Shown: positions 11,912-59,003 of the stretch, piece after piece
How positions within the stretch are numbered: position 1 is the first letter of the stretch
How the letters are laid out: the number at the start of each line of letters is the position of its first letter
IMG/VR virus record: IMGVR_UViG_3300027714_002832
DNA length: 64,000 nucleotides
Strand: one strand, 5' to 3'
Source: a virus
The notes under the pieces: model-generated
Databases searched by the model: none
Seen by the model: only the letters and a program-made list of their open reading frames with translations
What the model was told of the DNA's origin: nothing
Program-made: the position numbers and the translations under genes

Positions 11912-11940
11912 TTGACAAGTAAGGCTTATTGTTATATAAT
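11912..11940 (+). promoter_or_regulatory. conserved phage promoter module
   Basis: CTTGACAAGTAAGG, 17 nt, TATAAT 11935-11940. Confidence 0.6.
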
Positions 11941-11971
11941 ATTTATATAATTTAATCAAAAGGAAGTTATC

Positions 11972-29971: not shown

Positions 29972-29994
29972 TTGCATTTATTTTACTCAAACAC

Positions 29995-30023
29995 TTGACA
30001 AGTAAGACGCATTGCGTTATAAT
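29995..30023 (+). promoter_or_regulatory. conserved phage promoter module
   Basis: ACACTTGACAAGTAAG, 17 nt, TATAAT then GTTACATAAGTTAATTAAAG. Confidence 0.6.
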
Positions 30024-30055
30024 AGTTACATAAGTTAATTAAAGCGAGAAAGATT

Positions 30056-32065: not shown

Positions 32066-32094
32066 TTGACAAGTAACACTCGTCATGCTATAAT
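32066..32094 (+). promoter_or_regulatory. sigma70-like promoter upstream of prs
   Basis: TTGACAAGTAAC, 17 nt, TATAAT 32089-32094. Confidence 0.55.
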
Positions 32095-32127
32095 AACTGA
32101 CATCATGAATATAAAGGATTTAATAAA

Positions 32128-37404: not shown

Positions 37405-37611
37405 ATGAGTACATTAGATAGTTTAACACACCATAAAGAAGTACTAGAACAACGTCATCGTTTATTAGATAAGGTCATTGCTGACATGTATAAACAAAAT
37501 TCAGATGATGTATTACTACATACTATGAAAAAAGAAAAGTTACAACTACGTGACGAAATTGAAGTAATGAATATTCAATTGGAACAAAATAAATCAAAAA
37601 CTTTCAATTAA
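37405..37611 (+). CDS. hypothetical coiled-coil protein
   Basis: 68-aa ORF. Confidence 0.4.
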   Translation: MSTLDSLTHHKEVLEQRHRLLDKVIADMYKQNSDDVLLHTMKKEKLQLRDEIEVMNIQLEQNKSKTFN

Positions 37612-37614
37612 CAC

Positions 37615-37643
37615 TTGACAAGTAACTCATATTGTTATATAAT
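37615..37643 (+). promoter_or_regulatory. conserved phage promoter module
   Basis: ACACTTGACAAGTAAC, 17 nt, TATAAT 37638-37643. Confidence 0.6.
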
Positions 37644-37777
37644 ATCTATATTAAATAAGGAAGTAATTATGTTTTGGTTATTACACGCAGCAGCATTAAT
37701 CGTTATGCCTCTTGCATTATTTGTGACTATACCACTACATCTCATTTCTAATCAACTATAGTTAAGGAATTAACAAT

Positions 37778-38431
37778 ATGAAATTTTTACTTGTATGTTC
37801 ATTTTTGACGTTATTAGGTGCAGCGGCTTACGGTGAATTTGGAATGGCATCAGGAAAATTGCTCGTACCTGCAAAGATTGATTTATCAGAAGATGAGTCT
37901 TGGATAAAGATTCAAGGTCGTTCTGATAGAAAATTCTTTCTGACTAATCCAGAGAAGCATCCCCAAATCTTTTGCCTTGCAAAGAATATATATTTTGAAG
38001 CAGGTATTGATAGTCGCGCTGGCATGTACGCTGTGGCAGATGTAACATTAAATCGTGTAACAGACTCACGATGGGGTAATACAGTATGTGATGTTGTTCA
38101 TCATGGAGCAAAAAAAGAGAGTTGGAAAACAAAGCAAGATCCTACTCTTCCTGATTCATTACGAATATATTATCCTGTTAAGAACAAGTGTGCATTTTCA
38201 TGGTATTGTGACGGCAAGCCAGACACCATCCCTTATGGAAGCACCAACTGGATTAAATCACAACACATAGCATGGGATATTTACATGAATGGTAATTATA
38301 GTGGAATCACAGAAGGATCTACCCACTACCATGCATCGTATGCTACATTCGGACAAGGTGATTGGCGCAAAGATCGTGGCATGCAATTCATAAGTCTTAT
38401 AGGACAGCACATCTTTTATCGGTGGAACTAA
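37778..38431 (+). CDS. secreted cell-wall hydrolase (SleB/CwlJ Hydrolase_2 family)
   Basis: signal peptide MKFLLVCSFLTLLGAAAYG; CLAKNIYFEAG...GMYAVADVTLNRV...WGNTVCDVV blocks. Confidence 0.7.
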   Translation: MKFLLVCSFLTLLGAAAYGEFGMASGKLLVPAKIDLSEDESWIKIQGRSDRKFFLTNPEKHPQIFCLAKNIYFEAGIDSRAGMYAVADVTLNRVTDSRWGNTVCDVVHHGAKKESWKTKQDPTLPDSLRIYYPVKNKCAFSWYCDGKPDTIPYGSTNWIKSQHIAWDIYMNGNYSGITEGSTHYHASYATFGQGDWRKDRGMQFISLIGQHIFYRWN

Positions 38432-38589
38432 TTAATAAAGTGATCAAGTTAGTATATGGACAATGGTCACATTGGCGCAATACAACGAGACACCTTAATC
38501 AATTAAAAAATACATTATATGCATTAACATGCAGTGATAATGATAAATATTACTAAATACATCAGTATTACAATTTAAAGGAGAAACTT

Positions 38590-38907
38590 ATGTTTACTAG
38601 AACATCAACATATACTAACACAACAGGATCATGGACTACCATAGAAGAAGCACTCACAGAAATAGATGCACTATTATCCTCAACAAAAACTGATCAGGAT
38701 CAGATTAAGCTTGATGAGTTAAAGTCTACTAATGACTTGAGTTGGGCTGTGGAAACACTAAGTGAAGATAGAACAACCGTTTCTTGTGTTATAACGGCAA
38801 GTCAACATGCCCTAGATGTGTTTGAAGGATTAACAGCAACTGCTGGCAATATAGAGGCATCTTCAATTCACAAGTATCAGTCTGACTGGACACTAGTGGT
38901 CGAATAA
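38590..38907 (+). CDS. hypothetical protein
   Basis: 105-aa ORF with RBS GGAGAAA. Confidence 0.45.
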   Translation: MFTRTSTYTNTTGSWTTIEEALTEIDALLSSTKTDQDQIKLDELKSTNDLSWAVETLSEDRTTVSCVITASQHALDVFEGLTATAGNIEASSIHKYQSDWTLVVE

Positions 38908-39242
38908 TGACTCAATGGCATGGCGGCAAAGGTGATTTAAGACGCGCTTCTACCTACGGTTCTAAATTTGGTGATAATTATGACAAAATTTGGGGCAAAA
39001 AAGAAGCGACATTTGAGAAGACGAAGTCATCAGTGTCAGATGATGACTTACGTCCAATCGATGGAAGACTTGTCGAAGCAGATGAATGTGTGTGTCATAA
39101 ATGTATTACGGACAATAAATTAATTGATTCTAGTGGATTCTTAATAAGCGTCTCTGGTAGGGTAGTATGCCCAGAGTGCAAATCAACACGATGTGCTCAC
39201 GCACAAGATCATAATAACAAATGTGGTGGTTGGTCACTGTAA
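38907..39242 (+). CDS. hypothetical zinc-ribbon protein
   Basis: CVCHKC...CPECKSTRC; C-terminal codons lie in the 31-bp direct repeat. Confidence 0.45.
   Translation: MTQWHGGKGDLRRASTYGSKFGDNYDKIWGKKEATFEKTKSSVSDDDLRPIDGRLVEADECVCHKCITDNKLIDSSGFLISVSGRVVCPECKSTRCAHAQDHNNKCGGWSL
39208..39238 (+). repeat. 31-bp perfect direct repeat, copy 1
   Basis: ATCATAATAACAAATGTGGTGGTTGGTCACT, identical to 39886-39916. Confidence 0.9.
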
Positions 39243-39287
39243 TAGGTACCGTGACAGTACACCATGTATGAATAATGGGAAATTAGT

Positions 39288-39851
39288 ATGCAAGGAAGAA
39301 CAGAATACACGCACGACAAATTACATGAGACAATTCGATGCCAACGAAATTGGGATTGGGATAATCAAGTAACACCAGAGCATTTAGCAATTCTTGATGA
39401 ATATGTAGCAAAGCCTGCGCAACAACAAGGTGAACGAATGTTTAGTGTTGCACGAATTCATAATGATATGGAAAAAATATCTGACATACATGACAATTTA
39501 AACAAAAGTAATACTCAAGTACTGGCCCCTTTGGTGTATATTTGGTTTCCACTTGACGAACACGTCTGGGATCACCACCTTCAAGCAGGGTTTCATGCAG
39601 GAATTATATCTAAATTAGCAAACGAGTTGGGGTATGCTACTGGGTTTTGTGGTTGTGGAGCAAGTGAAAATAGTGAATGGTCTAGTATTACAGAAAAATA
39701 TAACCTAACACCAGTAGAAGATTATAAAAATCCTATTTTTATATTAAGTATAGGACACGGAAAACCTGATACTCCATACAACAAAGACCATCTTGAAAAT
39801 TTTATTCATACGCACCATCGATATGATCACGCACCAGTAAAAACAGTATAA
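39288..39851 (+). CDS. hypothetical protein (bracketed by 31-bp direct repeats)
   Basis: 187-aa ORF with RBS. Confidence 0.5.
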   Translation: MQGRTEYTHDKLHETIRCQRNWDWDNQVTPEHLAILDEYVAKPAQQQGERMFSVARIHNDMEKISDIHDNLNKSNTQVLAPLVYIWFPLDEHVWDHHLQAGFHAGIISKLANELGYATGFCGCGASENSEWSSITEKYNLTPVEDYKNPIFILSIGHGKPDTPYNKDHLENFIHTHHRYDHAPVKTV

Positions 39852-39885
39852 TTTAATATAGGCATATGCTACGTGACACTAGTAT

Positions 39886-39916
39886 ATCATAATAACAAAT
39901 GTGGTGGTTGGTCACT
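39886..39916 (+). repeat. 31-bp perfect direct repeat, copy 2
   Basis: identical to 39208-39238. Confidence 0.9.
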
Positions 39917-39970
39917 TTAAGATAAGTGGTCGACGATTCACAAAATTCGCAGTTACTAATGGAGATTAAA

Positions 39971-41185
39971 ATGTCGAATCCAACATATATGGATTATTCA
40001 TCAACGACCCCAGTAGATCCACAGGTCGCCAAAAAAATGGCAGATTGTTTAACAATGGAAGGCAACTTTGGCAATCCTGCATCACGTTCACATACGTACG
40101 GATGGGAAGCAGAAGCAGCCGTTGATAAAGCACGTAAACAAGTAGCAGATTTGATTGGAGCAGATACACGAGAGATTGTATGGACATCAGGCGCAACTGA
40201 ATCAAACAATCTAGCACTTAAAGGCATTGCTCAGTTTTATGCAAAACGTGGTAAGCATATTATTACGTTACGAACAGAACATAAAGCAATACTAGATACT
40301 TGTCGTCAACTAGAACGAGAAGGGTTTGAAGTAACTTACTTAGACCCAATGCCCAACGGTTTACTAGACATTGAAGTGTTTAAAAATACAATCAGAGAAG
40401 ACACCATTTTAGCATCATTTATGCATGTTAATAATGAGATTGGTGTTATACAAGACTTACACGCCATTGGTGATATCTGTAGAGAACATAAAGTATTCTT
40501 CCATGTTGACGCTGCTCAATCAGTAGGCAAAATGCCAATTGACTTAGCAACGCTCCCAGTAGATTTAATGAGTTTTTCCGCACATAAGATATACGGACCT
40601 AAAGGCATGGGTGCATTGTATGTATCACGTAAACCTAGAGTTCGTCTTGAAGCACAAATGCATGGTGGTGGACACGAACGCGGTATGCGATCTGGTACAT
40701 TAGCAACACATCAAATTGTTGGAATGGGTGAAGCATTTGCTATTGCACAAGAAATGATGGCAGAGGAAGAAGTTAGAACACGCGCACTCAGAGATAGGTT
40801 ATACGCGGGATTCTCAGATATGGAAGAAGTAGTAGTCAATGGTGATTTTGAACAGCGTATTGGCAGCAACTTAAATATCAGTTTCAATTACGTAGAGGGT
40901 GAATCTCTATTAATGGCAATCTCTAATATTGCAGTATCTTCTGGTTCTGCATGTACATCTGCAAGTCTTGAACCATCATACGTTCTTAGAGCGTTAGGAC
41001 TTAGTGACGAATTAGCACACAGTTCAATTCGATTTAGTGTTGGTCGTTATACAACAGAAAAAGATGTAGATGATGCAATTATTCTAGTACGACAGAAAGT
41101 AGAAAAATTAAGAGACTTATCACCATTATGGGACATGTACAAAGATGGTGTTGATTTAAGTACGGTACAATGGGCTGCTCACTAA
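39971..41185 (+). CDS. iscS: cysteine desulfurase IscS/NifS
   Basis: start set at [16 protein letters not shown] (RBS GGAGA); PLP Lys block [16 protein letters not shown]; active-site SSGSACTS. Confidence 0.9.
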
Positions 41186-41228
41186 TAAGCAACCCTAAAT
41201 AATAGTAAATTAACTAAGGAATATAATT

Positions 41229-41612
41229 ATGGCATACTCAGAAAAAGTGCTAGATCATTACGAAAACCCACGCAACGTAGGTAAGATGGATGAATCTGAT
41301 GAAAATGTAGGTACAGGAATGGTAGGTGCACCAGCATGTGGTGACGTAATGCGTCTACAAATCAAGGTTAGCGATGAAGGCATCATTGAAGATGCTAAGT
41401 TCAAAACCTATGGGTGTGGTTCTGCAATTGCATCAAGTTCATTGGTGACAGAAATATTAAAAGGTATGGATTTAGACGAAGCAGTTTCTATTTCTAATAG
41501 TGAAATTGCACAAGAACTTGCATTACCACCTGTTAAAATTCACTGTTCTGTATTAGCAGAAGACGCTATCAAAGCAGCAGTCGCAGATTATAAAGAAAAG
41601 CACGCCATCTAA
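41229..41612 (+). CDS. iscU: Fe-S cluster scaffold IscU/NifU
   Basis: YENPRNVG, GAPACGDVM, KTYGCGSAIASSS, LPPVKIHCS motifs. Confidence 0.9.
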   Translation: MAYSEKVLDHYENPRNVGKMDESDENVGTGMVGAPACGDVMRLQIKVSDEGIIEDAKFKTYGCGSAIASSSLVTEILKGMDLDEAVSISNSEIAQELALPPVKIHCSVLAEDAIKAAVADYKEKHAI

Positions 41613-41908
41613 TGTGGGACATCATACAAAGCATGTCATCAGATAGACTCTGGATATGGACTGCATTGGCTGGTAGTATTTTCGGTGCATTGTTTATAGC
41701 ATGGATTACTGATACTCGTGTCGCTCTATGGACTTATGGTAAATGGTCTACATTACTAAATTATCTAGTAACTAAATGGGGTTGGACATGGTTTCAAGAA
41801 GATCCCAATGCATGGAAAAAACTAAACCCTAACCTATCTAATAAGATAGTTGATCTAGAATCTCGCATTATCGAACTAGAAAACAAAAAAACATTAGAGG
41901 ACAAGTAA
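41612..41908 (+). CDS. hypothetical membrane protein
   Basis: 98 aa, 1 TM helix, ATGTGG overlap. Confidence 0.4.
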   Translation: MWDIIQSMSSDRLWIWTALAGSIFGALFIAWITDTRVALWTYGKWSTLLNYLVTKWGWTWFQEDPNAWKKLNPNLSNKIVDLESRIIELENKKTLEDK

Positions 41909-42691
41909 TTGGCAACCACATATGAAACTGTGTTAGAAGTAATTCATTACACAGACGAATTATTTTATTTCAAAACAACACGTAATCCAGGATTCAGATT
42001 TAAAGATGGTGAATTCGTTATGATGGGTTTAGATCATTTCTCAGAAAAACTTCAAAAGAATAAACCTATATTGAGAGCATACAGTATTGCTTCTCCATCG
42101 TACGCTGAATACTTAGAATTCTATAGTATCAAAGTACAAGATGGTCCGTTAACAAGTAAATTACAGCATGTTAAAGTAGGTGACAAAATCCTAGTAGGTA
42201 CTAAACCAACTGGTACATTAGTCCCAGATAATGTCAAGCCAGGTCGTAATCTATATATGTTAAGTTCGGGCACTGGCGTAGCACCATTTATGGGGTTAGC
42301 ACGTAGTCTTGATATTTACGACAACTATGATAATGTAATATTGGTACACGGTACTAGAAAGATCGAAGATTTAGTTTGGAAAGATATGTGGTTAGGTCTT
42401 AACGAACACGAATTGTATGGTGAGTTAGTGCAGAATAAATTCCATTATTACGCAACGGTTTCTCGTGAAGAATATGAGAATGAAGGCAGAGTAACTACCG
42501 CACTATTCGATCATTCGATAGAAGACAAGTTACAGTTACCACATCTTGATTCTGAATTCGATAGAGTTATGATTTGCGGGTCTATTCCATTCAATGAGGA
42601 TTTACAAAATCATCTACTTGAAAAAGGATTCGTTGAAGGTAACATGAGTGATCCAGGCACATTCGTAGTAGAACGTGCATTCGTAGGATAA
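41909..42691 (+). CDS. ferredoxin/flavodoxin-NADP(+) reductase (Fpr-like)
   Basis: FAD-binding RAYSIASP, NAD-binding LYMLSSGTGVAPF blocks of plant-type FNR family. Confidence 0.75.
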   Translation: MATTYETVLEVIHYTDELFYFKTTRNPGFRFKDGEFVMMGLDHFSEKLQKNKPILRAYSIASPSYAEYLEFYSIKVQDGPLTSKLQHVKVGDKILVGTKPTGTLVPDNVKPGRNLYMLSSGTGVAPFMGLARSLDIYDNYDNVILVHGTRKIEDLVWKDMWLGLNEHELYGELVQNKFHYYATVSREEYENEGRVTTALFDHSIEDKLQLPHLDSEFDRVMICGSIPFNEDLQNHLLEKGFVEGNMSDPGTFVVERAFVG

Positions 42692-42695
42692 CAAT

Positions 42696-42720
42696 AGCCC
42701 AGTTTAACTGGGCTTTTTTA
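42696..42720. terminator. bidirectional rho-independent terminator between convergent genes
   Basis: AGCCCAGTT-TAA-CTGGGCT hairpin flanked by A and T runs. Confidence 0.75.
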
Positions 42721-43524
42721 TTTGCGTTGTTTAATCTTTTCAATATAATTAGTACTTAGGTGATCATAAATCCCATCAAAAAATTGAAACTTACTCCATG
42801 CTTTAAATGTACCTTTTACTTTATCAACAAATCGTTGCCACCAAGTAAGATCAGTTAATATTTTAAAATCATAAGTTATATAATTTAACTGTCCAACATG
42901 ACGATAATATCCTAATATCGGAACTTGTGGTATAATGTCATTATTGTTTACGAAGCGATATGCTTCTATGTTATCAAACTGTACACCCCATTCCTTATTG
43001 CCTGTTCTTGGGCATCCATATGTATACAATACCAAATCTGCGTCTAATTTAGCCACCCTACTTGCAAGGATAGTTGCCATTGCAGCACCTAGACTATGTC
43101 CTGTTATAACAAGTTTTTTAGTGGTTACTCGCTTACCTAACCATTTAATAATTGATGGGTATAACTTATCAATTTCTGTTTTAAATCCATAGTGTACATA
43201 ACCAACTGTTTCACTATCGGATGGCCATGCTTTAATGTCTGCTAACATATCTTTTGCTTGTGTTGGCTCGGTTCCTCGTAATGCTATAACTATATAGTCT
43301 GGCATAACAATACCATATCCTTGTGCACTATCGTTTGTAAAAAACTTGATACTAGAATATTTTATATTATTATCTTTTAAGTATGCAGACATTCTTGCTT
43401 TATCATAATATGCTTCATCGCATAAATGTGCACATAATTCTGCAATTTTCCAATCTACTTCTTTATTTTGTGGCATGTAATATCTCCAATTATGTATATA
43501 TTTAGTCAAATAAAGTGTTGACAA
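42718..43524 (-). CDS. class-3 lipase (alpha/beta hydrolase)
   Basis: nucleophile elbow ITGHSLGAAMATILA, Lipase_3-like context. Confidence 0.7.
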   Translation of the reverse strand: MSTLYLTKYIHNWRYYMPQNKEVDWKIAELCAHLCDEAYYDKARMSAYLKDNNIKYSSIKFFTNDSAQGYGIVMPDYIVIALRGTEPTQAKDMLADIKAWPSDSETVGYVHYGFKTEIDKLYPSIIKWLGKRVTTKKLVITGHSLGAAMATILASRVAKLDADLVLYTYGCPRTGNKEWGVQFDNIEAYRFVNNNDIIPQVPILGYYRHVGQLNYITYDFKILTDLTWWQRFVDKVKGTFKAWSKFQFFDGIYDHLSTNYIEKIKQRK

Positions 43525-43546
43525 GTAAGGCTTCTTATTGTATAAT
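43518..43546 (+). promoter_or_regulatory. conserved phage promoter module
   Basis: GTGTTGACAAGTAAGG, 17 nt, TATAAT then GGTTACATAAGTTAAT. Confidence 0.6.
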
Positions 43547-43577
43547 GGTTACATAAGTTAATAAAGAGAGCAAGACT

Positions 43578-43718: not shown

Positions 43719-43725
43719 TTAGGGG

Positions 43726-43754
43726 TTGACACGTAAGGCTCCTTATAGTATAAT
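43726..43754 (+). promoter_or_regulatory. conserved phage promoter module
   Basis: GGTTGACACGTAAGG, 17 nt, TATAAT then GGTTACATAAGTTAATTAAT. Confidence 0.6.
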
Positions 43755-43793
43755 GGTTACATAAGTTAATTAATGAAAGAAAGAGAGAACGAT

Positions 43794-47310: not shown

Positions 47311-48000
47311 ATTAGATCTAACCCAGTCATGCATTTCAGGCGTGTTATGCGCATTGATAACTAACCAATAACTATCTTTAGTACTTGCATTAAATAATGC
47401 ATGCTCTAATGTAGTGTTCACTGCATATAGTTGGCCCATTTCAAAATAAAGCGGCTTATCTTCTAACATAAATCTAAACCACGGATTTGTAGTATTAGAT
47501 AACGCCATTATTAATCTAAACGTATCCACATTTTCACCACGACTATCTCGATGTGGTGGGAAATAACCGCCTGGCGATACTCTCAATATATGCGTTCTAC
47601 CACATAAATGTAATATATCACCAAGTAACTCTTTCATTGAAGTGAGATCATACACAGGGGTAGTTTTATCAAAATCTTTTTCACTGTAATCTGTATTATA
47701 TTTTCTATTCCATTCATACAGACTATTCAATGCGGGACCAGATTGATTTAAACCACTTTCATTTATTACACATAGACCGTCTCGCTTAATATGTGGTTTA
47801 AATTCATTGTATTGTTCCCATTTATCGTCAAACTGTGATAGTTCTTCCATAAATCTGCTAGTATTAATACTCTTATCTAATAAGATTTGATTTCCTAAAT
47901 TAAAAATTACAGACATATAACTATTCCTTAAAAGATTTATCGCCGGGAAACAATGGTAATTGTGTACCTGGCGCACGCTTAGGTATCTTACTATCTGCAC
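47296..48000 (-). CDS. cupin / 2OG-Fe(II)-oxygenase-like protein (candidate)
   Basis: GGYFPPHRDSRGE (HxD) and downstream LEHALFN His; first gene of minus-strand island. Confidence 0.4.
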   Translation of the reverse strand: MQIVRYLSVRQVHNYHCFPAINLLRNSYMSVIFNLGNQILLDKSINTSRFMEELSQFDDKWEQYNEFKPHIKRDGLCVINESGLNQSGPALNSLYEWNRKYNTDYSEKDFDKTTPVYDLTSMKELLGDILHLCGRTHILRVSPGGYFPPHRDSRGENVDTFRLIMALSNTTNPWFRFMLEDKPLYFEMGQLYAVNTTLEHALFNASTKDSYWLVINAHNTPEMHDWVRSNLAIK

Positions 48001-49090
48001 TACTCACGCACGCATTAGTCGTACATACTGTGGGTGCATCAAATAACTTGAAACCTGTTTCTATATTTCCTAACGGCTGATCTACGCAACTATAACTACG
48101 CTTCACACTACCATCTGGTTCTCTGATAATAATACTACGATGACCAGATGAACATTCCCAGCCCTTGAATTTATTAAAACCAAATGCGTTGAATCGTTCA
48201 GCCTGATCCATGAACCAATGCTTGTTATCTTTATCCATGAACTCAACTTGAAAATGCTGAGGCACTGTTACATTCTCTTCCCAATACAACGGATCCCCAT
48301 CTTTCTTAAATGTAGGTGTCGGGCGTGTAACCAACTGAGTCTTTTTCGCTTTATCTTCTGTATAACCACGCTGTGGCATACCGTTGTGTAATCGCTCCAT
48401 CTGCTCTGCGGTGTAACCATCTACTATCTTACTAGCAGTAGGATCAGACATAGGCTTTAATGTACAGTTGATTCCCTGATTATGAAAGAATAACGCATTA
48501 TCCCAATCTCGCTCAAACCATTCTGGAACCATCACTTGATTGATAGTTACTTGTACATCATGTTCTTGACAGAATATTAACTTATCAGCAAAGACTTGCA
48601 TCTTTTCTCTAGTGTCTAAATGCTCTGTGTGCAAACTTGCTGTAATACTTGCTCTATGAAATGGTGCGACATTCTTAACATAAGTCTCAAACCACTTCAT
48701 GGGACGTGACATATTAGTTGTCATGTGAACTGATGTGTAATTAGTGTTATCTACATCATCTGCAAGGTGTTTCATTATATCCAAATATCCCGGATGGAAT
48801 GTTGGTTCACCCCCGCTTAAACTAAAGTGAAAACTATTGAAACCATTGTCTCGTGCTTGACGCTTAATCTCGTCAACTGTACGTAAACATAACTCAGTAG
48901 GTCTAAAGTCTTTCTTATCACTACGAGCGTAAGGCCAGCAGTAACTACAACGATAGTTACAATAGCGTCCCAGTAACCAACTAATACTGAATAAATCGCG
49001 ATGAAGCATTGTGCGTTGCCCTACTCTTACTAAATCATCAAATGGTATTTTAGTAAAATCGTATGTACTGTATTTTAAATCTTCGCTCAT
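47921..49090 (-). CDS. radical SAM enzyme with C-terminal twitch/SPASM-like Cys region
   Basis: CNYRCSYC (Cx3Cx2C); C-terminal WECSSGHRS...SYSCVD...CTTNAC; start set at MSEDLKY (49090) 1 nt after upstream stop; ORF-track start is 49138. Confidence 0.75.
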   Translation of the reverse strand: MSEDLKYSTYDFTKIPFDDLVRVGQRTMLHRDLFSISWLLGRYCNYRCSYCWPYARSDKKDFRPTELCLRTVDEIKRQARDNGFNSFHFSLSGGEPTFHPGYLDIMKHLADDVDNTNYTSVHMTTNMSRPMKWFETYVKNVAPFHRASITASLHTEHLDTREKMQVFADKLIFCQEHDVQVTINQVMVPEWFERDWDNALFFHNQGINCTLKPMSDPTASKIVDGYTAEQMERLHNGMPQRGYTEDKAKKTQLVTRPTPTFKKDGDPLYWEENVTVPQHFQVEFMDKDNKHWFMDQAERFNAFGFNKFKGWECSSGHRSIIIREPDGSVKRSYSCVDQPLGNIETGFKLFDAPTVCTTNACVSSADSKIPKRAPGTQLPLFPGDKSFKE

Positions 49091-49091
49091 T

Positions 49092-49529
49092 TTAGATGCA
49101 CCATGAAATCTTTTTATCGCCATAATATTCTCTAGCAAAGCCTTCTGCTATGAGCATGTGTCTTAAACTCTTGCCATCTATAATGATATCACCAAGTACT
49201 CGACCACCATACTTGTCCCATTTATAAATGGCTACTTGTATAACCGTTGCTGCATTTAACATATCTTTAGTAAACTGTGACGCTTCTTCACCCCATGCTG
49301 CTTCTTTAGGACATTCTGCTCTCCAACTTTTTTCTGGAGTATCTACACCATATACACGAATACTTAATTCCTGCTTCAATGGTGCTGGTAAAAAGGTAGC
49401 TTCAAATGCAACGGTGTCGCCATCAATCACTCTTGTAATATTATAATCGTAGATGGTCATCTCTACTTCTTTTGCCATTGCTGGCATTGTTGATAGTATT
49501 GCAATTAATAAAATTATAATCGTTCTCAT
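49092..49529 (-). CDS. secreted staphylococcal-nuclease (SNase)-like nuclease
   Basis: signal peptide MRTIIILLIAILSTMPAMA; VIDGDTVAF...RVYGVDTPE SNase catalytic blocks. Confidence 0.6.
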   Translation of the reverse strand: MRTIIILLIAILSTMPAMAKEVEMTIYDYNITRVIDGDTVAFEATFLPAPLKQELSIRVYGVDTPEKSWRAECPKEAAWGEEASQFTKDMLNAATVIQVAIYKWDKYGGRVLGDIIIDGKSLRHMLIAEGFAREYYGDKKISWCI

Positions 49530-50464
49530 GCTGTCTCTCCGTTAATGTAGTATTTATTATAAAGTATATCGTATGCGTCTACGACCTGTTTGTAACGCCT
49601 ACCATATATCTGTGCTGCTTCTTTTAATATATCACTGTTACTTACACCTAAGTAATCAAGTATAACATCTGTATTTTTAAACCATTCAACGTCTACTACT
49701 AAATGATCAATTTTATCTTCTTCTATATAGGATAATGACTCATTTTGAACAAACACATCTTCGTAATCGTGTTTTTCTTCAAATAGCCTATGGAACGAAT
49801 ACTCAAATTCAAAAATACCATCACCAGTGTTATCGTCTATGTGACTTAGCGATTTCTTCAAATCCCAATGTGCAAAATTTAATTGCCACATATATTTCAA
49901 CTTACCATCGTGAAAATCCTCTATACATTTGTCGTGATAATCTCTATACCAAACTTCTTTCCATTTGCCAATAATATCTCCGTCCATTAGCATGTGATCT
50001 TCCCACCACAACTGCGTTTGTTCAATTATCTCATCTTCTGTTAATTCAATAAATGCATATTGCGTTATATAGAACATTGCACTTTGTTCGGTTGTGACTT
50101 GGGTGAATATGAGTTTGTCAGCAATTGGTGCGAACCTTGAATCATATGTAGCACCGAAATAATTACTCCACACTTTATATTGAAAATCTTCATTAAATTT
50201 AAAATATTCGGAAAGGCAATCAATCCCACCATCTGTTTCTGTTTTATTTTCCATCATTCTAAGCGTTTCTTGATGACTATAATATAAATCTTGATCAATA
50301 AGATGGGTATATCGGTTCTCTTCAACTATGGTTCCAATTGCTAGTCGTTCAGGTGTTGGCTTTAATCCAGAATAGATTTGAGGACCAAATCTATGATCTT
50401 GTGCAAGCCACCAATGAATCGCAGGTGCATGTGCATTTACTACTTGATATATTCCGATGTTCAT
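49526..50464 (-). CDS. hypothetical protein
   Basis: 312 aa, acidic, Trp/Tyr-rich, no motif recognised. Confidence 0.5.
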   Translation of the reverse strand: MNIGIYQVVNAHAPAIHWWLAQDHRFGPQIYSGLKPTPERLAIGTIVEENRYTHLIDQDLYYSHQETLRMMENKTETDGGIDCLSEYFKFNEDFQYKVWSNYFGATYDSRFAPIADKLIFTQVTTEQSAMFYITQYAFIELTEDEIIEQTQLWWEDHMLMDGDIIGKWKEVWYRDYHDKCIEDFHDGKLKYMWQLNFAHWDLKKSLSHIDDNTGDGIFEFEYSFHRLFEEKHDYEDVFVQNESLSYIEEDKIDHLVVDVEWFKNTDVILDYLGVSNSDILKEAAQIYGRRYKQVVDAYDILYNKYYINGETA

Positions 50465-50580
50465 AGTGCAAGGTAATTAGGCATAGCCATGATAGGCGAT
50501 GATGTTAAAATTATAGCCAATGTGACTGTCGCCACTTTAGCCAATAGCACTACTGCTTGCTTAATATATATTTTCATAAT
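50461..50580 (-). CDS. small hydrophobic peptide (39 aa)
   Basis: MKIYIKQAVVLLAKVATVTLAIILTSSPIMAMPNYLAL; below ORF-track cutoff. Confidence 0.25.
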   Translation of the reverse strand: MMKIYIKQAVVLLAKVATVTLAIILTSSPIMAMPNYLAL

Positions 50581-50586
50581 TATTCC

Positions 50587-51237
50587 TTAATTTTTTGAAC
50601 GGTTAATCCATTCTTCATCTGTCACCTGTATAGGATCAATACTTAATTCATTCAATGACAAATGTTCAGGCAATATCATCGCATATTCAATACAATCAAC
50701 CGCTTCTTCAAATGTCATCAACTTGCGTCCTGGATGCTTGTCTGCGTTATTCGGCAATGTACCAAACGTAACATAACTCACCTTTGGGCCACCTTGCCAG
50801 ATACTTTTCAATCCCATAGCGTTACTCGCACTACGTAATGCTTTCTTCTCTTGTTGATATGTCCAATCCGACCCTTTTGTTGCCCTGTCCGTGGTGGACC
50901 CGACAGACACTATATGTAGGGATTTCCGGGCACTCTGTGCGGTTTTATATACTACATCTAGTAGCAGTGCCTGATGGTACTGCCATAGTGCACTACAGTT
51001 AATAAAAATGTCGTATTCTAGTGCTTTATTTGCAACAGTTTTTTTCACATGATTCAATGTTAGATCATGGTCACTGATGCTTTGACTAATAAAATCTGTC
51101 TGTGGATATCGTTTTAATATCTCACTCGCTAGACCAATCTCTGGATTACCTGTACATAATATTTTCTTATTAGTTAAATCAATCACTTTACTTTCCTTTT
51201 TACTACTGGACGCAACGTCCATATTTCTTTTGTACAT
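50587..51237 (-). CDS. short-chain dehydrogenase/reductase-like NAD(P)-binding protein
   Basis: ILCTGNPEIGLA Rossmann turn, INCSAL (NNAG-like), YQQEK (YxxxK). Confidence 0.45.
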   Translation of the reverse strand: MYKRNMDVASSSKKESKVIDLTNKKILCTGNPEIGLASEILKRYPQTDFISQSISDHDLTLNHVKKTVANKALEYDIFINCSALWQYHQALLLDVVYKTAQSARKSLHIVSVGSTTDRATKGSDWTYQQEKKALRSASNAMGLKSIWQGGPKVSYVTFGTLPNNADKHPGRKLMTFEEAVDCIEYAMILPEHLSLNELSIDPIQVTDEEWINRSKN

Positions 51238-51288
51238 CGGTGTGGCATATCGTCAACGTAGGTACCACAATATGGGCATAGAATCTGA

Positions 51289-52551
51289 TTAGTTATTGTC
51301 ATTGATTTGTCCTTTAAATTCTGGACATGATTCTACTAACGTACCACGTTGCAATTCATCCATCTTCAAATTATAATCAATAAATTCTTGCCAGTGTTCA
51401 GCATGTGTATTCCCAGCATTTAAATACTTAATCACATCGTCTACCTTAGGCCATGCTTTATGACTTTTTAAATTATACAATGCCAACGTCTTTAAATGAT
51501 GTGGCAATACTTGTATATTCATACTACGCGGATGGTTTAATATATTGAAATATAACTGATCATGTTCTAATCCACGTGATTCCGCAAACTCGATAACCTC
51601 GTGTAGTGCACATACATTCAATGCTTGTACCGTACAATGAATCTGAATATATACATTATCCAATTTAGATAATTCATCAAAATTCTTTTCTACTATATGC
51701 CAATGACTAGGGTAACGAATATATCTGTCACGCGCACCAATTGCATCAATTGAGCAATTTAATTGTACACGCTTGAAATGTGACCAATATTCGATCATCT
51801 TCGGTGGCACATTAGTTAGGTTGGTGTTGTACTTTAAACGAATGCCCGATGCAAGATCATTTTCAATACAATAGTCTAACAACTTATATTGACTAACTGC
51901 CAATGTAGGCTCACCACCAGTTAAATAAATTTCTTCAACCGTATGAGCAATTTCAGTGAATGTAATACCTGTCTTTTCCCAATCTGGCCATTCAGTCATG
52001 GTATTCATGAATTCTAATGTGTCTTCATCCAATTTCTTTGGTGGATCTAAATATGCTGCATCAACTACTTTATTCCAATCTTTAACCCACATGCTACTTG
52101 CCCACGGATTACACATGCGACATTTTAGGTTACATAAGTTACCCAAACGTAAGTCAACATATTTCACATCAACTGGAATTTCAACATCTATCTTCACATC
52201 TTCTTTCAGCCACTTTTCATTAAATCCTGCTCGCGCACTACGAATGCCAGCATCTTCTTCTCTGAAACAACGCGCACACATATCTGGTCGCTCACCATCG
52301 ATGAACTGTTTTCTGATAGTTGTATAGGTTGGGCTATTCCATACTTCATCTAAATCATGCTTGTAGATTTTATATGGCTTGCCATTCTCTTGTAATATTG
52401 TGTTCTCACCGGGCGTGCTATTACAGCATACTCGATAAGATCCCGCAGCATTAGTTGCTACGTGCATAAAGGGTAAAACACAGAACGTGTCACTTACTTT
52501 TTTTGTCATTTGTTTAAATCCATTTTGTATAATCTTTGCCATCACTATCAT
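51289..52551 (-). CDS. radical SAM enzyme with N-terminal twitch-like Cys motif
   Basis: N-term CVLPFMHVATNAAGSYRVCCNS ... CARCF then CNLKCRMC (Cx3Cx2C). Confidence 0.8.
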   Translation of the reverse strand: MIVMAKIIQNGFKQMTKKVSDTFCVLPFMHVATNAAGSYRVCCNSTPGENTILQENGKPYKIYKHDLDEVWNSPTYTTIRKQFIDGERPDMCARCFREEDAGIRSARAGFNEKWLKEDVKIDVEIPVDVKYVDLRLGNLCNLKCRMCNPWASSMWVKDWNKVVDAAYLDPPKKLDEDTLEFMNTMTEWPDWEKTGITFTEIAHTVEEIYLTGGEPTLAVSQYKLLDYCIENDLASGIRLKYNTNLTNVPPKMIEYWSHFKRVQLNCSIDAIGARDRYIRYPSHWHIVEKNFDELSKLDNVYIQIHCTVQALNVCALHEVIEFAESRGLEHDQLYFNILNHPRSMNIQVLPHHLKTLALYNLKSHKAWPKVDDVIKYLNAGNTHAEHWQEFIDYNLKMDELQRGTLVESCPEFKGQINDNN

Positions 52552-53446
52552 CTAGTATCATTACATGATCAATCAATTGTTGTTTATTATCTTGATCATC
52601 CAATGCACCCGGAGCCATGTATGCGGGACTAATCAAATCACTCGCTCTATTGAAGTGAATATCGTGACTTGTCGCCCAATCATTCACTTCGTGAATGTTA
52701 TTAATATTTAGTACACTTGGTAAACACGTAATACATATACTCGTATTATCAGGTGAACTCTTGTGTATGTCAATGATATTATTACTTACTTGTTCCCAGT
52801 TTGCTCCTCGTCTAAGGTATTCAAAACGCTCACCTATGGCATCTACACTTGCAACTATTATAACACGTTTAAACGATTCGAACAAGGGATAATATGCATT
52901 AATATCTATTGTTCCATTAGTAATGAATTGTAATTCAATCGTAGATGAAACGTCTGCATCGATCAGATATTTAATTATCTTCTTTACTTGTGGTATCATG
53001 AATGGTTCACCACCTGTAAATTTAAGAATCTTTGCAAAATGCAATTGTGGGTATATCTGCTCAATATCTTTGTGCCAACCTGTATTTGCTTTGCGCTTAC
53101 CAGTTTTTACTGCCCACGAACTTGAACTATAACTATCACATGAGACGCACGTGAGATTACACGTGTTGTTAATCTTTAAGTCCCATTGCTCTGTGCCAAT
53201 GCTATCTGCTAGTACATCATTCATATACATTCGATAACTCTTACCATTTGATTCTTCATCTTGTTGGCACTCTATGCATTCAGGCAACCAACCTCGCAAT
53301 GACTCAACATAGTATTTGTTGTGCAACGATTCCCAATCATCGGTAATTGCAACACCAGATGATGCCGCATTCCAAGCACAGCATGGTCTAACTTCGCCTG
53401 TTACGCCTATCGTTACTGCATGTTTAAACGCCAAGCATTTTGGCAT
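52514..53446 (-). CDS. radical SAM enzyme with N-terminal twitch-like Cys motif
   Basis: N-term CLAFKHAVTIGVTGEVRPCCAW ... CIEC then CNLTCVSC. Confidence 0.8.
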   Translation of the reverse strand: MPKCLAFKHAVTIGVTGEVRPCCAWNAASSGVAITDDWESLHNKYYVESLRGWLPECIECQQDEESNGKSYRMYMNDVLADSIGTEQWDLKINNTCNLTCVSCDSYSSSSWAVKTGKRKANTGWHKDIEQIYPQLHFAKILKFTGGEPFMIPQVKKIIKYLIDADVSSTIELQFITNGTIDINAYYPLFESFKRVIIVASVDAIGERFEYLRRGANWEQVSNNIIDIHKSSPDNTSICITCLPSVLNINNIHEVNDWATSHDIHFNRASDLISPAYMAPGALDDQDNKQQLIDHVMILDDSDGKDYTKWI

Positions 53447-54179
53447 AGCCGCGATTCACCTGTTGTTTAAATTCATCACTAGGACCACCATCAAAGATCA
53501 TATGTATCCTTGGTTCTTCACTTTTATTCCATACAGAATGCTTATATCCTGTATTCAATTTCATCACTGAACCTGCTTCAAATGGAACAATACCCATACC
53601 TTCAAATACGAATTCGCATCCATCTGGATTGTTTAATGCTACATTAGTTGCACCTACTCCAACTGGATTAGGTCTATCGTTGTGAATGCCCAACCAACCA
53701 TCTGGTAACAGTGCCATGAACCTTACACGAGCAAACTGGTTGTACAACATTTCATCTTGCATCCATTGTACTGTTTTAGGGCAAAATTTAGCAATATCAG
53801 TCCAGTCACTATGGGTTTCTTCATAATCATCTGGTAAGTTATAATCTTCTGCACAATTAGTATGTACACTGCTTATTCCATGAATCGACAAACTCAACCA
53901 CCCCGAACTACAAGGACGGTGTGCAGTAAAGCATGACGTATATAACAAATGATTTGCTTCTTCAAACAAATCCTTGTGTGGTACATTAATTTCTGGTATC
54001 GATATATATGGAAAACGGGTATTGTCCATGATGTAATCAACATCGTGCTCACTTTCTTCTAAAAAATTCCCTGCATCTAATATTTTAAAATCAGGTTTAA
54101 TAATTCTATTTTCTTCATGCCATATAATTGATTCATCATCAATTTCTTCCCTATCTAAAGGTGATCCTTCAAACCACAT
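53424..54179 (-). CDS. aspartyl/asparaginyl beta-hydroxylase-like cupin oxygenase (candidate)
   Basis: WLGIHNDRPNP (HxD) and YKHSVWN (distal His) in a beta-rich C-terminal half. Confidence 0.45.
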   Translation of the reverse strand: MWFEGSPLDREEIDDESIIWHEENRIIKPDFKILDAGNFLEESEHDVDYIMDNTRFPYISIPEINVPHKDLFEEANHLLYTSCFTAHRPCSSGWLSLSIHGISSVHTNCAEDYNLPDDYEETHSDWTDIAKFCPKTVQWMQDEMLYNQFARVRFMALLPDGWLGIHNDRPNPVGVGATNVALNNPDGCEFVFEGMGIVPFEAGSVMKLNTGYKHSVWNKSEEPRIHMIFDGGPSDEFKQQVNRGYAKMLGV

Positions 54180-54189
54180 AATTTATCTC

Positions 54190-55749
54190 CTATTGTTCAA
54201 ATGTTAATGTTTCATTATTGGTTGTACTTATAATAGCCCTTGATGGACATGTTAAGTCGTTATCGTTTATATCAGTGCCCGAAAACCAACAATCATCATG
54301 CAATTCATTTAATTTAGTTATTAAACTAATGAAACTCAATTCCATTGCAAACGGTTTACTAAGCATCTTTGGCACAATATAACTATAGATATTAGATGTC
54401 CACATCAATGTTCTTTTATTTTCTACTGCTTCAAATAATTTATCATGTCCATATATTAAATCACATTCAATTACTTCCCAGTTGCTCTGTCTGATTCTAT
54501 CCCATACTGATAACCAATTAGTATCTCCATCAAATTGCTGTATTACGTTAGGCCATCTCTCAACAGTCAAGTCTCTTAAATTTCCATTTGCATCTGGATG
54601 CTGTTCAATCCATGCATCGACAAACTCAGGATAGTTTATACCATTCCATTGTTCTAGCATATCTCGTTTAAATTTACAACTCAATGGATCAAAATCATAT
54701 AACACAAATTTCGTGTCTTTTGTAAAACCATACTTGTATGCATAGTAGAATAATTTAAAGCCCGCAGTGGCACCGACATATTGATCAAATACCGTTCCTT
54801 CAATTTGTTCTGCAATACCAGGCTGACTAGATTCTGTATTTACAAAATATATAGGACTATCTGGTGCGAACATCTCTCTTATCATTCGATTTGCTTGAAA
54901 TGTTAGTTTATCACTGTCAAACGGTAAACCTTGTATAGCCTTCTCAAATTCAATTGAACCAACATGCGGCTTCATCGTGGCTAAACAATTCATAAAATCT
55001 GCACTCAATCCTGGGACAATTAGTTCTTGTCGCAATGACCATGTCAATAACGGATTGCACAATTTATGATGGTATTGTTCATTAAATTCTTCGTGTGTTA
55101 TCCACGGATTCCATGTAGCATGTTTGATATTTAATCGTGCAGCGCCTAGTTTTACAATACCAAATAAACTATCCTCAAAATCTTCAACTATTCCTTGTTT
55201 TCTAGTAACCCAATTGTCACTTGGCTTTTCATGTCGTGTACCTTGACGAGAATACCGATCTGCGGGATCTTGATTGTATAATACATCAGCGGGATCTTGT
55301 GCACCTTGCTCATACCACGTATCTAAATTAATCAGTATGATGTTTCTTTCAAAATGAGAATATCTTTCATCATCGGTTTGTAATATATTTCCTGCAACTA
55401 TCCATTTAGTGATATCAAATTCTTCATTAATACGATTTATTTCATCAAGTAATTTTAAGTTAACATCATCAGATGCTGACCAAGTGCCGTCAAACCACAT
55501 ACATACATAACGATATCCTAATTTGCGCATAGCGATCATCCAACTAATTTCGGATTGTCCTACAATGTTAACTATGCCTCCACGAAGATGATTATTATGT
55601 TCTACCTCTGCTATTTCACGTAACTTTTGCTTTAATATAGGTGTGTCACTTAATTCAATACTATCAGTGTTATTTGAATTGAATGCGTGAACTATTGGCC
55701 ATGAATTTTCTCCATGATAATAATTCCACAGACTCTGTCCTTTCTTCAT
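54190..55749 (-). CDS. large hypothetical protein (possible Rossmann/methyltransferase-like segment)
   Basis: 519 aa; Gly-rich YVGATAGFKLFYYAYKYG followed by acidic LYDFDPL, weak. Confidence 0.5.
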   Translation of the reverse strand: MKKGQSLWNYYHGENSWPIVHAFNSNNTDSIELSDTPILKQKLREIAEVEHNNHLRGGIVNIVGQSEISWMIAMRKLGYRYVCMWFDGTWSASDDVNLKLLDEINRINEEFDITKWIVAGNILQTDDERYSHFERNIILINLDTWYEQGAQDPADVLYNQDPADRYSRQGTRHEKPSDNWVTRKQGIVEDFEDSLFGIVKLGAARLNIKHATWNPWITHEEFNEQYHHKLCNPLLTWSLRQELIVPGLSADFMNCLATMKPHVGSIEFEKAIQGLPFDSDKLTFQANRMIREMFAPDSPIYFVNTESSQPGIAEQIEGTVFDQYVGATAGFKLFYYAYKYGFTKDTKFVLYDFDPLSCKFKRDMLEQWNGINYPEFVDAWIEQHPDANGNLRDLTVERWPNVIQQFDGDTNWLSVWDRIRQSNWEVIECDLIYGHDKLFEAVENKRTLMWTSNIYSYIVPKMLSKPFAMELSFISLITKLNELHDDCWFSGTDINDNDLTCPSRAIISTTNNETLTFEQ

Positions 55750-55758
55750 TTTTCGTCC

Positions 55759-58105: not shown

Positions 58106-59003
58106 TATTTTTATACCTCTTTAGTGCTTTCGCTAAGTTGATGCGATTGTATGCGCGATCACGATGGAACATATCCCATTCTGGTGTATCAGGTGCTTGG
58201 GCAATATGTATCGTATTAGTCTCTTGCAATCCATAATGTTCACATACAATTTTATGTGCTTCTCTATATTTGTTAGGCATAGTATCTGGGCTGAACTTTT
58301 TCATTAACGCATTAGACAATGCTACATTCAAATGAATACCGTGATTCCATTCTGTCTGCACTCGCATACCACAACGCTCTTCATCTAAACGACTGAACAC
58401 AATACCAGCACGCCAGTTACCACCACTTAATCCTTTACCAGTGCTGAATGCAACCATCTTAATACAATCATGTGACAAATCAACATCAATATCAAAACAA
58501 GTTCCAAACCATGCACAATCTACCAGAATAGGAATATTCTTTGCTGTACACTCTTCAATCAACCAATCCCATCGCTCGTGCTTGCGTCCGTTACCACTGA
58601 ATGGAATACTAACGATAACCGCATCACCTACGGATAACCCAGTATCGTCAATGCTATCTGACCAATTCATTTCTGGTCCCAACCATACATCACGGTTATA
58701 CGGATATTCACCACGGAACACCTTTAAGTTCTGTCCAGTAGCGATGCACCAATACTGCCACCATTCTAATGCTTGTGTAGTACCTAAACTAACATAACGA
58801 TCAGGATATGTATCTAACCCAGTAAAGTTATTTAATTTGCTGCTTTGTATCCATTTGGGATATAATTCTAAGAATTCTGCTGGGGCTGTACCAACTCCTG
58901 CTAAATTCATATTTGGCAATACTTCATCTTGTATATAGTCAATAAATGGTTGATTCCAAATACTGTTGCCTGTCTTACCAAAATCGGGGTTGTTACTCAT
59001 CAT
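58086..59003 (-). CDS. truncated PLP-dependent aminotransferase-like protein
   Basis: AFSTGKGLSGGNWRAGIVFS resembles fold-type-I aminotransferase SxSKxxGxxGxRxG block; only 305 aa. Confidence 0.4.
   Translation of the reverse strand: MMSNNPDFGKTGNSIWNQPFIDYIQDEVLPNMNLAGVGTAPAEFLELYPKWIQSSKLNNFTGLDTYPDRYVSLGTTQALEWWQYWCIATGQNLKVFRGEYPYNRDVWLGPEMNWSDSIDDTGLSVGDAVIVSIPFSGNGRKHERWDWLIEECTAKNIPILVDCAWFGTCFDIDVDLSHDCIKMVAFSTGKGLSGGNWRAGIVFSRLDEERCGMRVQTEWNHGIHLNVALSNALMKKFSPDTMPNKYREAHKIVCEHYGLQETNTIHIAQAPDTPEWDMFHRDRAYNRINLAKALKRYKNNGKFAE

Follow-up and report, generated by a model that had tools for sequence, protein, structure and literature searches.

What does a perfect short direct repeat around a single phage gene record? 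In the 64,000-nucleotide (nt) stretch of virus record IMGVR_UViG_3300027714_002832 that we analysed (hereafter the window), two identical 31-mers, here called R1 and R2, bracket one open reading frame (ORF), ORF187, that lies between gene111 and the cysteine desulfurase gene iscS. We propose that this locus is probably an old recombination scar, an insertion-deletion polymorphism bounded by direct repeats at a variable spot of an early operon, and that R2 has been refreshed by conversion. A recombination scar combined with a direct-repeat indel polymorphism is a known kind of feature, accompanied here by well-documented apparent homogenisation of the repeats. The first-pass annotation of this DNA had read the same geometry as a possible mobile or recently inserted cassette, explained by target-site duplication or by recombination between short homologies. 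Its view that a single dispensable gene is bracketed by repeats and can be deleted stands; target-site duplication and recent insertion do not.

A gene and the two copies of its neighbour's end

The elements at the locus, all on the plus strand, are as follows.
38907-39242, plus strand: gene111, encoding a 111-residue cysteine-rich protein; its last 10 codons and stop codon are R1
39208-39242, plus strand: left repeat, R1; 31-mer followed by G TAA, together forming the coding 3' end of gene111
39243-39287, plus strand: ORF187 leader; its 5' part survives in deletion alleles
39288-39851, plus strand: ORF187, a predicted nitroreductase-fold (flavin mononucleotide, FMN, type) accessory protein; sole gene between the repeats
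39852-39885, plus strand: ORF187 trailer; non-coding, from the ORF187 stop codon to R2, identical in the relative L125
39886-39920, plus strand: R2, the right repeat; the 31-mer plus T TAA, a non-coding relic of the gene111 3' end
39971-41185, plus strand: iscS, cysteine desulfurase (Pfam Aminotran_5, E 3e-84); first gene downstream of R2

The 31-mer, ATCATAATAACAAATGTGGTGGTTGGTCACT, has exactly two sites in the window, 39208-39238 and 39886-39916, both on the plus strand. No further copy is present in the window with up to 3 mismatches allowed, and the number expected from shuffles is 0. On the 192-kb sister contig IMGVR_UViG_3300031647_000750, a distinct genome that is 96-99% identical to the window, the 31-mer is found only at the same two places and at the same spacing; the search for copies elsewhere in the genome that had been recommended with the earlier reading thus returns these two in both sequences. 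R1 is the genuine 3' end of gene111, the 31-mer supplying the codons for the C-terminal residues HNNKCGGWSL, and R2 is a non-coding relic copy of the same end that keeps the gene111 reading frame for the last 10 codons plus the stop codon and includes part of an arm of a predicted downstream stem-loop, its 31-mer lying 54 nt upstream of the iscS ATG (39971). The repeat extends to 35 nt with one synonymous mismatch, CTG TAA in R1 and CTT TAA in R2 (Leu plus stop in both), and is followed by degenerate tails, GTAATAGGTACCGTGAC on the left and TTAAGATAAGTGGTC on the right, so that it measures about 48 nt if the tail is counted. The 678 bp that had been given as the DNA between the copies is the distance from the start of R1 to the start of R2; the DNA between them is 647 bp (39239-39885), and it holds one ORF only, as had been said. 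All of this anatomy is read directly from the sequence.

The perfect 31-bp repeat is real. Contigs that code for the ORF187 protein number at least 24 and come from many samples and assemblers (JGI and ENA), the same architecture recurs on at least 24 independent metagenome contigs, and in 5 of 5 fetched ORF187 loci gene111, ORF187, R2 and iscS are all present with both 31-mers perfect. Nothing in the bracketed segment resembles mobility machinery. Searches with Pfam, PHROG and Foldseek reveal no transposase, integrase or nuclease within it, and Pfam and the annotations show no integrase, transposase or tyrosine or serine recombinase family in the cassette or within 3 kb on either side. A scan of 39100-40000 finds no inverted repeats at either end of the insert, the best perfect pair being 10 nt long and internal (39266/39802). 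Likewise, the promoter and terminator scan finds neither element inside the segment; no plus-strand promoter-like site overlaps R1 or R2, minus-strand matches there are weak (9/12), and the total number of sites is not above that in shuffles. Among all fetched loci, the trailer has no match elsewhere, and a search for a donor context of the leader and trailer returns chance 11-16-mers only.

What is the cargo? ORF187 matches no family in Pfam (E<=0.1) or PHROG, and a PDB sequence search with a profile of the ORF187 family finds no match. An AlphaFold2 model built from 11 homologues is of moderate confidence (predicted local distance difference test, pLDDT, 69.6; predicted template modelling score, pTM, 0.71). 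Compared with the PDB by Foldseek, this model gives 166 matches at E<=0.001; 50 of the 50 listed are FMN-dependent flavoproteins of the nitroreductase or iodotyrosine-deiodinase type, and the top matches, 3e10, 2fre, 3kwk and 5j6c, have probability 1.00 and TM scores of 0.55-0.65. On the strength of the model, ORF187 is predicted to be an enzyme-like cargo with a nitroreductase alpha+beta fold rather than a nuclease or recombinase, and neither Pfam, PHROG nor Foldseek detects a GIY-YIG, HNH, LAGLIDADG or similar nuclease domain in it. Homologues of the protein are 44-69% identical in amino acids, and its cysteines C18, C121 and C123 are conserved. Those on IMG/VR contigs L003-L006 (60%) lie between large ORFs that, judged by size and sequence, appear structural, in an unrelated phage type; the nitroreductase-fold gene therefore seems to have moved between phage lineages over longer timescales. 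Flanking repeats were sought around the homologues in these unrelated contexts (L003, L006) and nothing convincing was seen.

Age of the duplication, and a proposed conversion of R2 and loss of ORF187

To place the locus in its history, we grouped the relatives into lineages A, B and C by gene111 similarity, lineage A being defined by gene111 products at least 94% identical in amino acids to that of the window and lineage B by gene111 products at 77-79% (with IscS at 93-96%). In lineage A, ORF187 and a perfect R2 are present in the window, L001, L057-L061 and L067; L125 is occupied with a decayed R2, and L126 is occupied too, its contig ending before R2. Gene111 is followed directly by iscS in L054 and L055, and directly by iscU, with neither ORF187 nor iscS, in L121-L124 and L127. 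Lineage B mainly has gene111 followed directly by iscS (L065, L069-L075), and three of its contigs (L062, L066, L068) are occupied by an ORF187 homologue that is 68-73% identical in amino acids. In lineage C (L008/L076/L077, L056, L063/L064) gene111 precedes iscU without ORF187 or iscS. Thus occupied and empty alleles are observed directly in both lineage A and lineage B, and iscS itself is variably present, being absent from L121-L124, L127 and the lineage-C contigs named. A region megablast and an ORF187 tblastn against GenBank phages gave no match, and gene111 gave one weak match to an Arthrobacter phage. Degenerate-pattern searches of IMG/VR for more occupied haplotypes recovered the sister contig only, the lineage-B relic pattern gave 0 matches, and a genomic-context look-up with the exact gene111 protein of the window returned nothing.

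The evidence that R2 is old comes from L125 and lineage B. L125 differs from the window by 4.4% over 861 aligned nt and has the same architecture with the same 678-nt spacing, and its two copies are not identical: R1 is ATCATAATAACAAATGTGGTGGTTGGTCACTTTAA and R2 is ATCATAATAACAAATGTGtTaGTTGaTCACTTTAA. They differ at 3 of 31 positions (19, 21 and 26), and two of the three R2 states match lineage B. At position 19, T creates GTT, the lineage-B gene111 codon (Val; in lineage A this codon is GGT, Gly), and at position 26, A creates GTTGATCACT, the same variant that is seen in the lineage-B relic. That relic retains only about 11 nt, (G)GTTGATCACTTTAA, and the ORF187 stop codon there abuts GTTGATCACTTTAATATTAATC. 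In the 133 nt from 39838 to 39970, the window and L125 differ at the three R2 positions and one other. Across both sublineages, represented by the window and L125, the R1 tail is (G/T)TAATAGGTAC(C/A)GTGAC and the R2 tail is TTAAGATAAGTGGTC, which means that the tails beyond the 31-mer had already diverged, and in the same way, in each; therefore the sharp edge of identity marks a recombination boundary and not uniform decay. What R2 looks like in L125 and lineage B is observed directly. From this we infer that the partial duplication is older than the split of lineages A and B and has decayed or been trimmed elsewhere, and that the perfect 31-mer of the window reflects a recent overwriting of R2 by R1 through gene conversion.

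The bracketed gene is likewise old. Between lineages A and B the nucleotide identity of ORF187 is 80-83%, compared with about 81% for gene111, about 78% for the hydrolase gene hyd217 and 88-90% for iscS. ORF187 occupies the same site in the same orientation in both lineages, and its guanine-plus-cytosine (GC) content and GC3 match those of the neighbouring genes. Because its A-B divergence matches that of gene111, ORF187 is an old resident that co-diverged with its neighbours and not a recent import. The description of the segment as a recently inserted cassette does not survive these comparisons: same site in both lineages, co-divergence, and an R2 that already differs at 3/31 in L125.

A second, smaller trace of exchange may lie within the gene itself.
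39819-39837, plus strand: in-frame 19-nt patch at the ORF187 3' end, identical at 16/19 positions to 39189-39207, just upstream of R1
The local alignment of these two segments has a shuffle p of about 0.007, and the patch encodes YDHAP in lineage-A ORF187 (L125 included) where 11 homologues outside lineage A have Y(N/E)W. This is weak evidence that the patch may be a small conversion tract from gene111.

We propose the following course of events. Unequal or illegitimate recombination would have put ORF187 between gene111 and iscS, leaving R2 as a relic, in a phage ancestral to two or more lineages of marine phages that carry iron-sulfur cluster genes and have genomes of roughly 190 kb. Within the early operon the cassette would have been passive cargo, without mobility machinery of its own. 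The relic would then have decayed in other lineages, to 3/31 differences in L125 and to the 11-nt remnant of lineage B, and in the window sublineage a short conversion tract from R1 to R2, covering at least repeat positions 19-26 and ending before position 32 (G in R1, T in R2), may have produced the perfect 31-mer. The repeat modules and nearby microhomologies could serve as substrates for recurrent deletion, the direction of change being assigned by parsimony, with one deletion taking ORF187 alone (675 bp) and another taking ORF187 together with iscS (about 1.9 kb).

How do the alleles without ORF187 bear on this scheme? Relatives that lack the ORF and carry a single repeat copy, which the first-pass annotation had advised seeking, exist in L054 and L055, with gene111 directly before iscS. 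They read ...GGTCACT GTAATAGATACAGTG joined to GTCGACGATTC..., in other words R1, then 15 nt from the start of the ORF187 leader, then the iscS leader, and they equal the window minus 39254-39928 (675 nt) with 3 substitutions relative to the predicted junction. The general form of this junction is ...CACTGTAATAG(G/A)TAC(C/A)GTGGTCGACG, and the joining motif, (A/C)GTG, is found at corresponding places in the two degenerate tails of the repeat modules, outside the 31-mer. L121-L124 and L127 read ...TAATAGTACAGTGACAGCATACCAT joined to ATCG...ATG(iscU), keeping about 26 nt of the leader and missing ORF187, R2 and iscS. At this deletion junction, upstream of iscU, we also note a (TA)n run of differing length in L121, L124 and L127: TATATATAGG, TATATATATAGG and TATATATATATATAGG. 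An empty site without a leader remnant would read gene111 followed by CACTTTAAGATAAGTGGTCGAC. Since leader remnants (15 or about 26 nt) are retained and gene111 of these alleles nests among occupied genomes (15 nt differences between the window and L125, 8 between L054 and L125, 3 between L127 and L125), the ORF187-lacking alleles of lineage A look like deletions rather than pre-insertion sites. In lineage B, gene111 of the occupied L068 differs at 5 positions from that of the empty L069, and the empty sites take two forms, CACTTTAATATT and CACTATAATATT, each of which would result from joining the 11-nt copies at a slightly different point. The junction sequences themselves are observed directly, and the expectation that the cassette can be lost is borne out by the ORF187-lacking variants that exist in nature (L054/L055; L121-L124, L127).

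Several points weigh against this reconstruction. The case for conversion rests on one divergent occupied haplotype, L125, and 3 mismatches in 31 nt are unexceptional at 4.4% divergence (clustering statistic P about 0.14); because of this, the argument hangs on the shared character states, two of the three coinciding with lineage B, for which a rough chance estimate is about 1e-3. Selection for the R2 hairpin described below could yield the position-26 G-to-A change independently in two lineages. The empty sites of lineage B are equally compatible with never having held ORF187. Moreover, gene111 haplotypes are mosaic and the phages recombine, and therefore the polarity of gain and loss on a tree is not rigorous. 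Finally, our model does not explain the two short copies, 5 nt apart and with no gene between them, in the L008-type relatives. At 6322-6355 of L008, and also in L076 and L077, the last 14-16 nt of gene111 occur twice, GGTTGGTCACTTTAA TATGT TGGTTGGTCACTTTTA, the second short copy lying directly upstream of the iscU leader; such a double copy could have been left by deletion of a cassette or made by slippage.

Predicted stem-loops and alternative explanations

Both repeats are predicted to contribute to RNA stem-loops.
39218-39270, plus strand: stem-loop at R1; fold -19.5 kcal/mol, z -2.45
39900-39942, plus strand: stem-loop at R2; fold -16.6 kcal/mol, z -2.74
In the first, the 5' arm is the distal half of R1 and the 3' arm is the first ~25 nt of the ORF187 leader; equivalents are predicted in L125, L121 and L054, with some pairs changed. 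In the second, the 5' arm is the distal half of R2 and the 3' arm is AAGTGGTCGAC in the iscS leader. The R2 hairpin of L125 is stronger (-18.4, z -4.07) because the G-to-A substitution turns a G-U pair into A-U, and the deletion junction of L054 recreates a 13-bp stem (-20.2; z -3.73). Folding reveals no comparable hairpin in lineages B and C. Neither stem-loop has a U-tract or is called by the terminator scan, a comparison of 38400-40400 with Rfam gives sub-threshold chance matches only, and the motif GTCAC-N8-16-GTGAC, considered as a possible genome-wide repeat, occurs only once in the window. A quasi-palindrome thus adjoins each repeat. From the T7 literature, a palindrome near direct repeats favours deletion between them. 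The predicted stem-loops also leave room for a functional reason to retain R2.

Could ORF187 instead leave and re-enter the genome? A crossover between R1 and R2 would excise the gene with one repeat as a mini-circle, of the type associated with the PeSL (promoter-early stem-loop) cassettes of T4-type phages, and a Campbell-type single crossover would return it at the gene111 3' end. We regard this alternative as unlikely. It would account both for the presence/absence polymorphism, with occupied and empty alleles in each of the two lineages, and for the perfect 31-mer. The geometry is that of single-crossover integration, in which the copy nearer the gene completes it and the farther one is a fragment; the R2 tail resembles the native gene111-to-iscS junction found elsewhere (CACTTTAA.AT) and the R1 tail is different. 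T4-type phages have been shown to form mini-circles between short flanking repeats (PMC2839356), and PeSL-like promoter cassettes are present elsewhere in this genome. The model predicts a circle junction of the form ...CGTGACACTAGTAT-[31-mer]-GTAATAGGTACCGTGACAG and a deletion junction, R1 with R2, of GCTCACGCACAAGATCATAATAACAAATGTGGTGGTTGGTCACTTTAAGATAAGTGGTCGACG; however, IMG/VR yields no product of a crossover inside the 31-mer, and the one lineage-A allele that lacks just ORF187 retains part of the leader. With two copies of the 31-mer there are, in addition, no other landing sites, and no such repeats flank the ORF187 homologues of other phage types.

Functional retention offers another account of the identity of R1 and R2, and we consider it improbable. 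Here R2 would be kept like R1 as the 5' arm of a stem-loop that serves processing, stability or translation of the iscS-iscU-FNR messenger, and the identity of the copies would reflect selection on the same structure, not gene conversion. The observation that speaks for it is that iscS in lineage A is always preceded by a hairpin with the 3' arm AGTGGTCGAC, formed by R2 in the window and L125 and by R1 in L054 (z -2.7 to -4.1), and that the G-to-A change in the L125 R2 changes a G-U pair to A-U. But only the last ~11 nt of R2 lie in the inner stem, which leaves the identity of the first ~18 nt to R1 unexplained, as well as the match of the window R2 to the lineage-A-specific Gly codon (GGT). 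Lineages B and C lack not only the hairpin but the entire 3'-arm segment, and the sequences are too few for a covariation test.

A recent insertion into an L054-like empty site in the window sublineage, whether transposition-like or through two staggered illegitimate joins, would have duplicated a 31-46-nt target. The single repeat copy and direct gene111-iscS order of L054/L055 fit such an origin, as does the R1 tail, GTAATAGGTACCGTG, which matches the L054 spacer up to GTG. We nevertheless hold it to be very improbable, and L125 already largely refutes it, since the same architecture with a decayed R2 exists there at 4.4% divergence. Neither a mobility gene nor inverted ends are present; known target-site duplications are far shorter than this one, and its length is not the same in the two lineages; the R2 tail differs from the supposed target at about 5/15 positions when the 31-mer differs at 0; L121-type alleles keep 26 nt of the leader without ORF187; and ORF187 has co-diverged with its neighbours. 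As for a repeat collapsed or duplicated during de Bruijn graph assembly, a concern raised with the earlier reading, the window and all relatives are indeed metagenome assemblies, but its probability is next to nothing: at least 24 contigs, obtained from different samples and by different pipelines (JGI, ENA MEGAHIT k141), share the identical architecture; a repeat of 31 nt is much shorter than the final k-mers that the contig names give (k119, k141); and in the divergent JGI haplotype L125 non-identical copies stand at the same 678-nt spacing.

Genomic setting and comparison with known systems

The locus is read as part of a longer operon.
37615-42714, plus strand: enclosing transcription unit, from the promoter and terminator scan
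The unit starts at a consensus early promoter (TTGACA-17-TATAAT, 37615-37643) and ends at a terminator hairpin (42696-42714); the scan finds no terminator between the two, and the promoter-like matches inside the unit are weaker than the 37615 site (best 10/12, inside iscS), their total being not above chance. Annotated neighbours within ±3 kb comprise a cell-wall hydrolase, DUF465, peptidase M15, IscS, IscU, an NAD-binding reductase and a lipase. Just upstream of gene111, orf105 (38590-38907) is hypervariable: it is 64% identical in amino acids (74% in nucleotides) between the window and L001/L057/L067, whose flanking genes are 99-100% identical, and in L054 and L125/L126 its place is taken by 111- or 120-residue ORFs. 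Variable DNA therefore adjoins gene111 both upstream and downstream. Pfam and PHROG searches assign no family to gene111 or orf105, only sub-threshold Pfam matches being obtained. Full-length gene111 homologues are 70-95% identical in amino acids and all end ...HNNKCxGW(S/T)L; dozens of marine phage contigs that otherwise differ share its conserved N-terminal stretch of ~45 residues (MTQWHGGKGDLRR..YG.KFGD.YD.IWG), and the cysteine-rich C-terminal half is restricted to this phage group.

Elsewhere in the window we note the following features.
11239-11302, 11906-11969, 29989-30052, 32066-32098, 37609-37672, 43512-43575 and 43720-43783: early-promoter cassette sites
47921-49138, 51289-52551, 55759-56985, 56972-58105 and 59504-60754, minus strand: radical-SAM ORFs by PHROG matches
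919-994 and 1044-1119: identical genes for transfer RNA (tRNA), tRNA-Ala(TGC); 1155-1230: tRNA-Thr(TGT)
The conserved promoter cassettes are ~65 nt long and follow the pattern AAACACTTGACAAGTAAG..TATAAT..TTAyATAAGTTAATTAAAG..AGGAAG..ATG. A terminator-like hairpin with a T-run stands before at least one of them (29989), and by their sequence these cassettes look like genuine PeSL-type elements. At least five ORFs in the minus-strand region 47921-60754 match radical-SAM PHROGs, near the phage IscS, IscU and NAD-binding reductase genes (39971-42691). T4-like marine viral genomes with many iron-sulfur-related genes have been described (PMC5332604), and the window resembles them in this respect. 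At 12203-12680, inside ORF 12144-13394 (plus strand), about six tandem copies of a 69-nt unit (77-100% identical) imply a repeated 23-residue protein motif.

The locus adds no new mechanism. It provides a natural series of accessory-gene retention and loss in a large uncultured marine phage: a perfect repeat, a decayed repeat, two deletion alleles and a sister lineage with a trimmed scar. It also offers a caution: a gene bracketed by a short and perfect direct repeat is not necessarily a recent arrival, since an old scar can be renewed by gene conversion. In addition, the locus could serve as a test case for measuring rates of repeat-mediated deletion and conversion from metagenomic reads of phage populations.

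How does the locus compare with known systems? The target-site duplications of transposons and insertion sequences (IS) have a fixed length for each element, typically 2-14 bp. A duplication of this kind, which the first-pass annotation had suggested, fails on each feature examined: the segment has no transposase, integrase or nuclease and no terminal inverted repeats, and a fixed length is incompatible with 31-35 nt (~48 with the tail; 31-50 nt at the widest) in lineage A against about 11 nt at the same site in lineage B. A free-standing homing endonuclease gene does not fit, Pfam, PHROG and Foldseek detecting no nuclease domain in ORF187. The attL/attR scars of Campbell-type integration, for example at tRNA or tmRNA targets, share with our locus the doubling of a target 3' end whose proximal copy completes the gene. 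Unlike them, the 0.65-kb insert has no integrase or excisionase in or near it, it sits in a lytic-type phage genome and not in a chromosome, and in sister lineages the copies of the repeat have decayed or been trimmed.

Deletion between direct repeats was reportedly studied experimentally in T7 by Pierce, Kong and Masker in 1991. The shared features are repeats of tens of bases, a palindromic element nearby, dispensable DNA between them and, in our case, natural deletion variants. In contrast to the experimental T7 work, what we describe is known from sequences, and the lineage-A junction falls in the degenerate tail, outside the perfect 31-mer. The morons of lambdoid phages, as summarised in a later paper, carry their own promoter and terminator (Hendrix et al. 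2000, summarised in PMC2839356). Measured against that summary, ORF187 is moron-like as a single extra gene between two genes that are adjacent in relatives, but it would differ in having neither element of its own and in being read as part of the operon.

The closest described system is the PeSL cassette of T4-type phages (Arbiol et al. 2010, PMC2839356; Comeau et al. 2014, PMC4122927), which behaves similarly although its defining parts are absent here. In PeSL cassettes, ORFans lie between short repeats composed of an early promoter and a terminator stem-loop, and deletions, insertions and mini-circles arise when these repeats exchange (PMC2839356). Our locus shares with those cassettes a single accessory ORF between short direct repeats, a place in a variable part of the early region of a large lytic phage, presence or absence of the ORF among close relatives, a predicted stem-loop in each repeat module, and recombination between repeats as the proposed route of loss and gain. 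Unlike PeSLs, the repeat has no promoter and no stem-loop that the scan calls a terminator, and its left copy is coding; and where PeSLs occur in many dispersed copies in the hyperplastic regions of the genome, this repeat has 2 copies in the window and 2 in the 192-kb sister contig. There is an outside chance that the gene 3' end together with its stem-loop acts as a promoter-less counterpart of a PeSL, allowing single metabolic genes of marine T4-like phages (ORF187, and perhaps iscS) to be reversibly excised as circles and re-integrated behind gene111, with conversion keeping the boundaries matched and the switch thereby usable.

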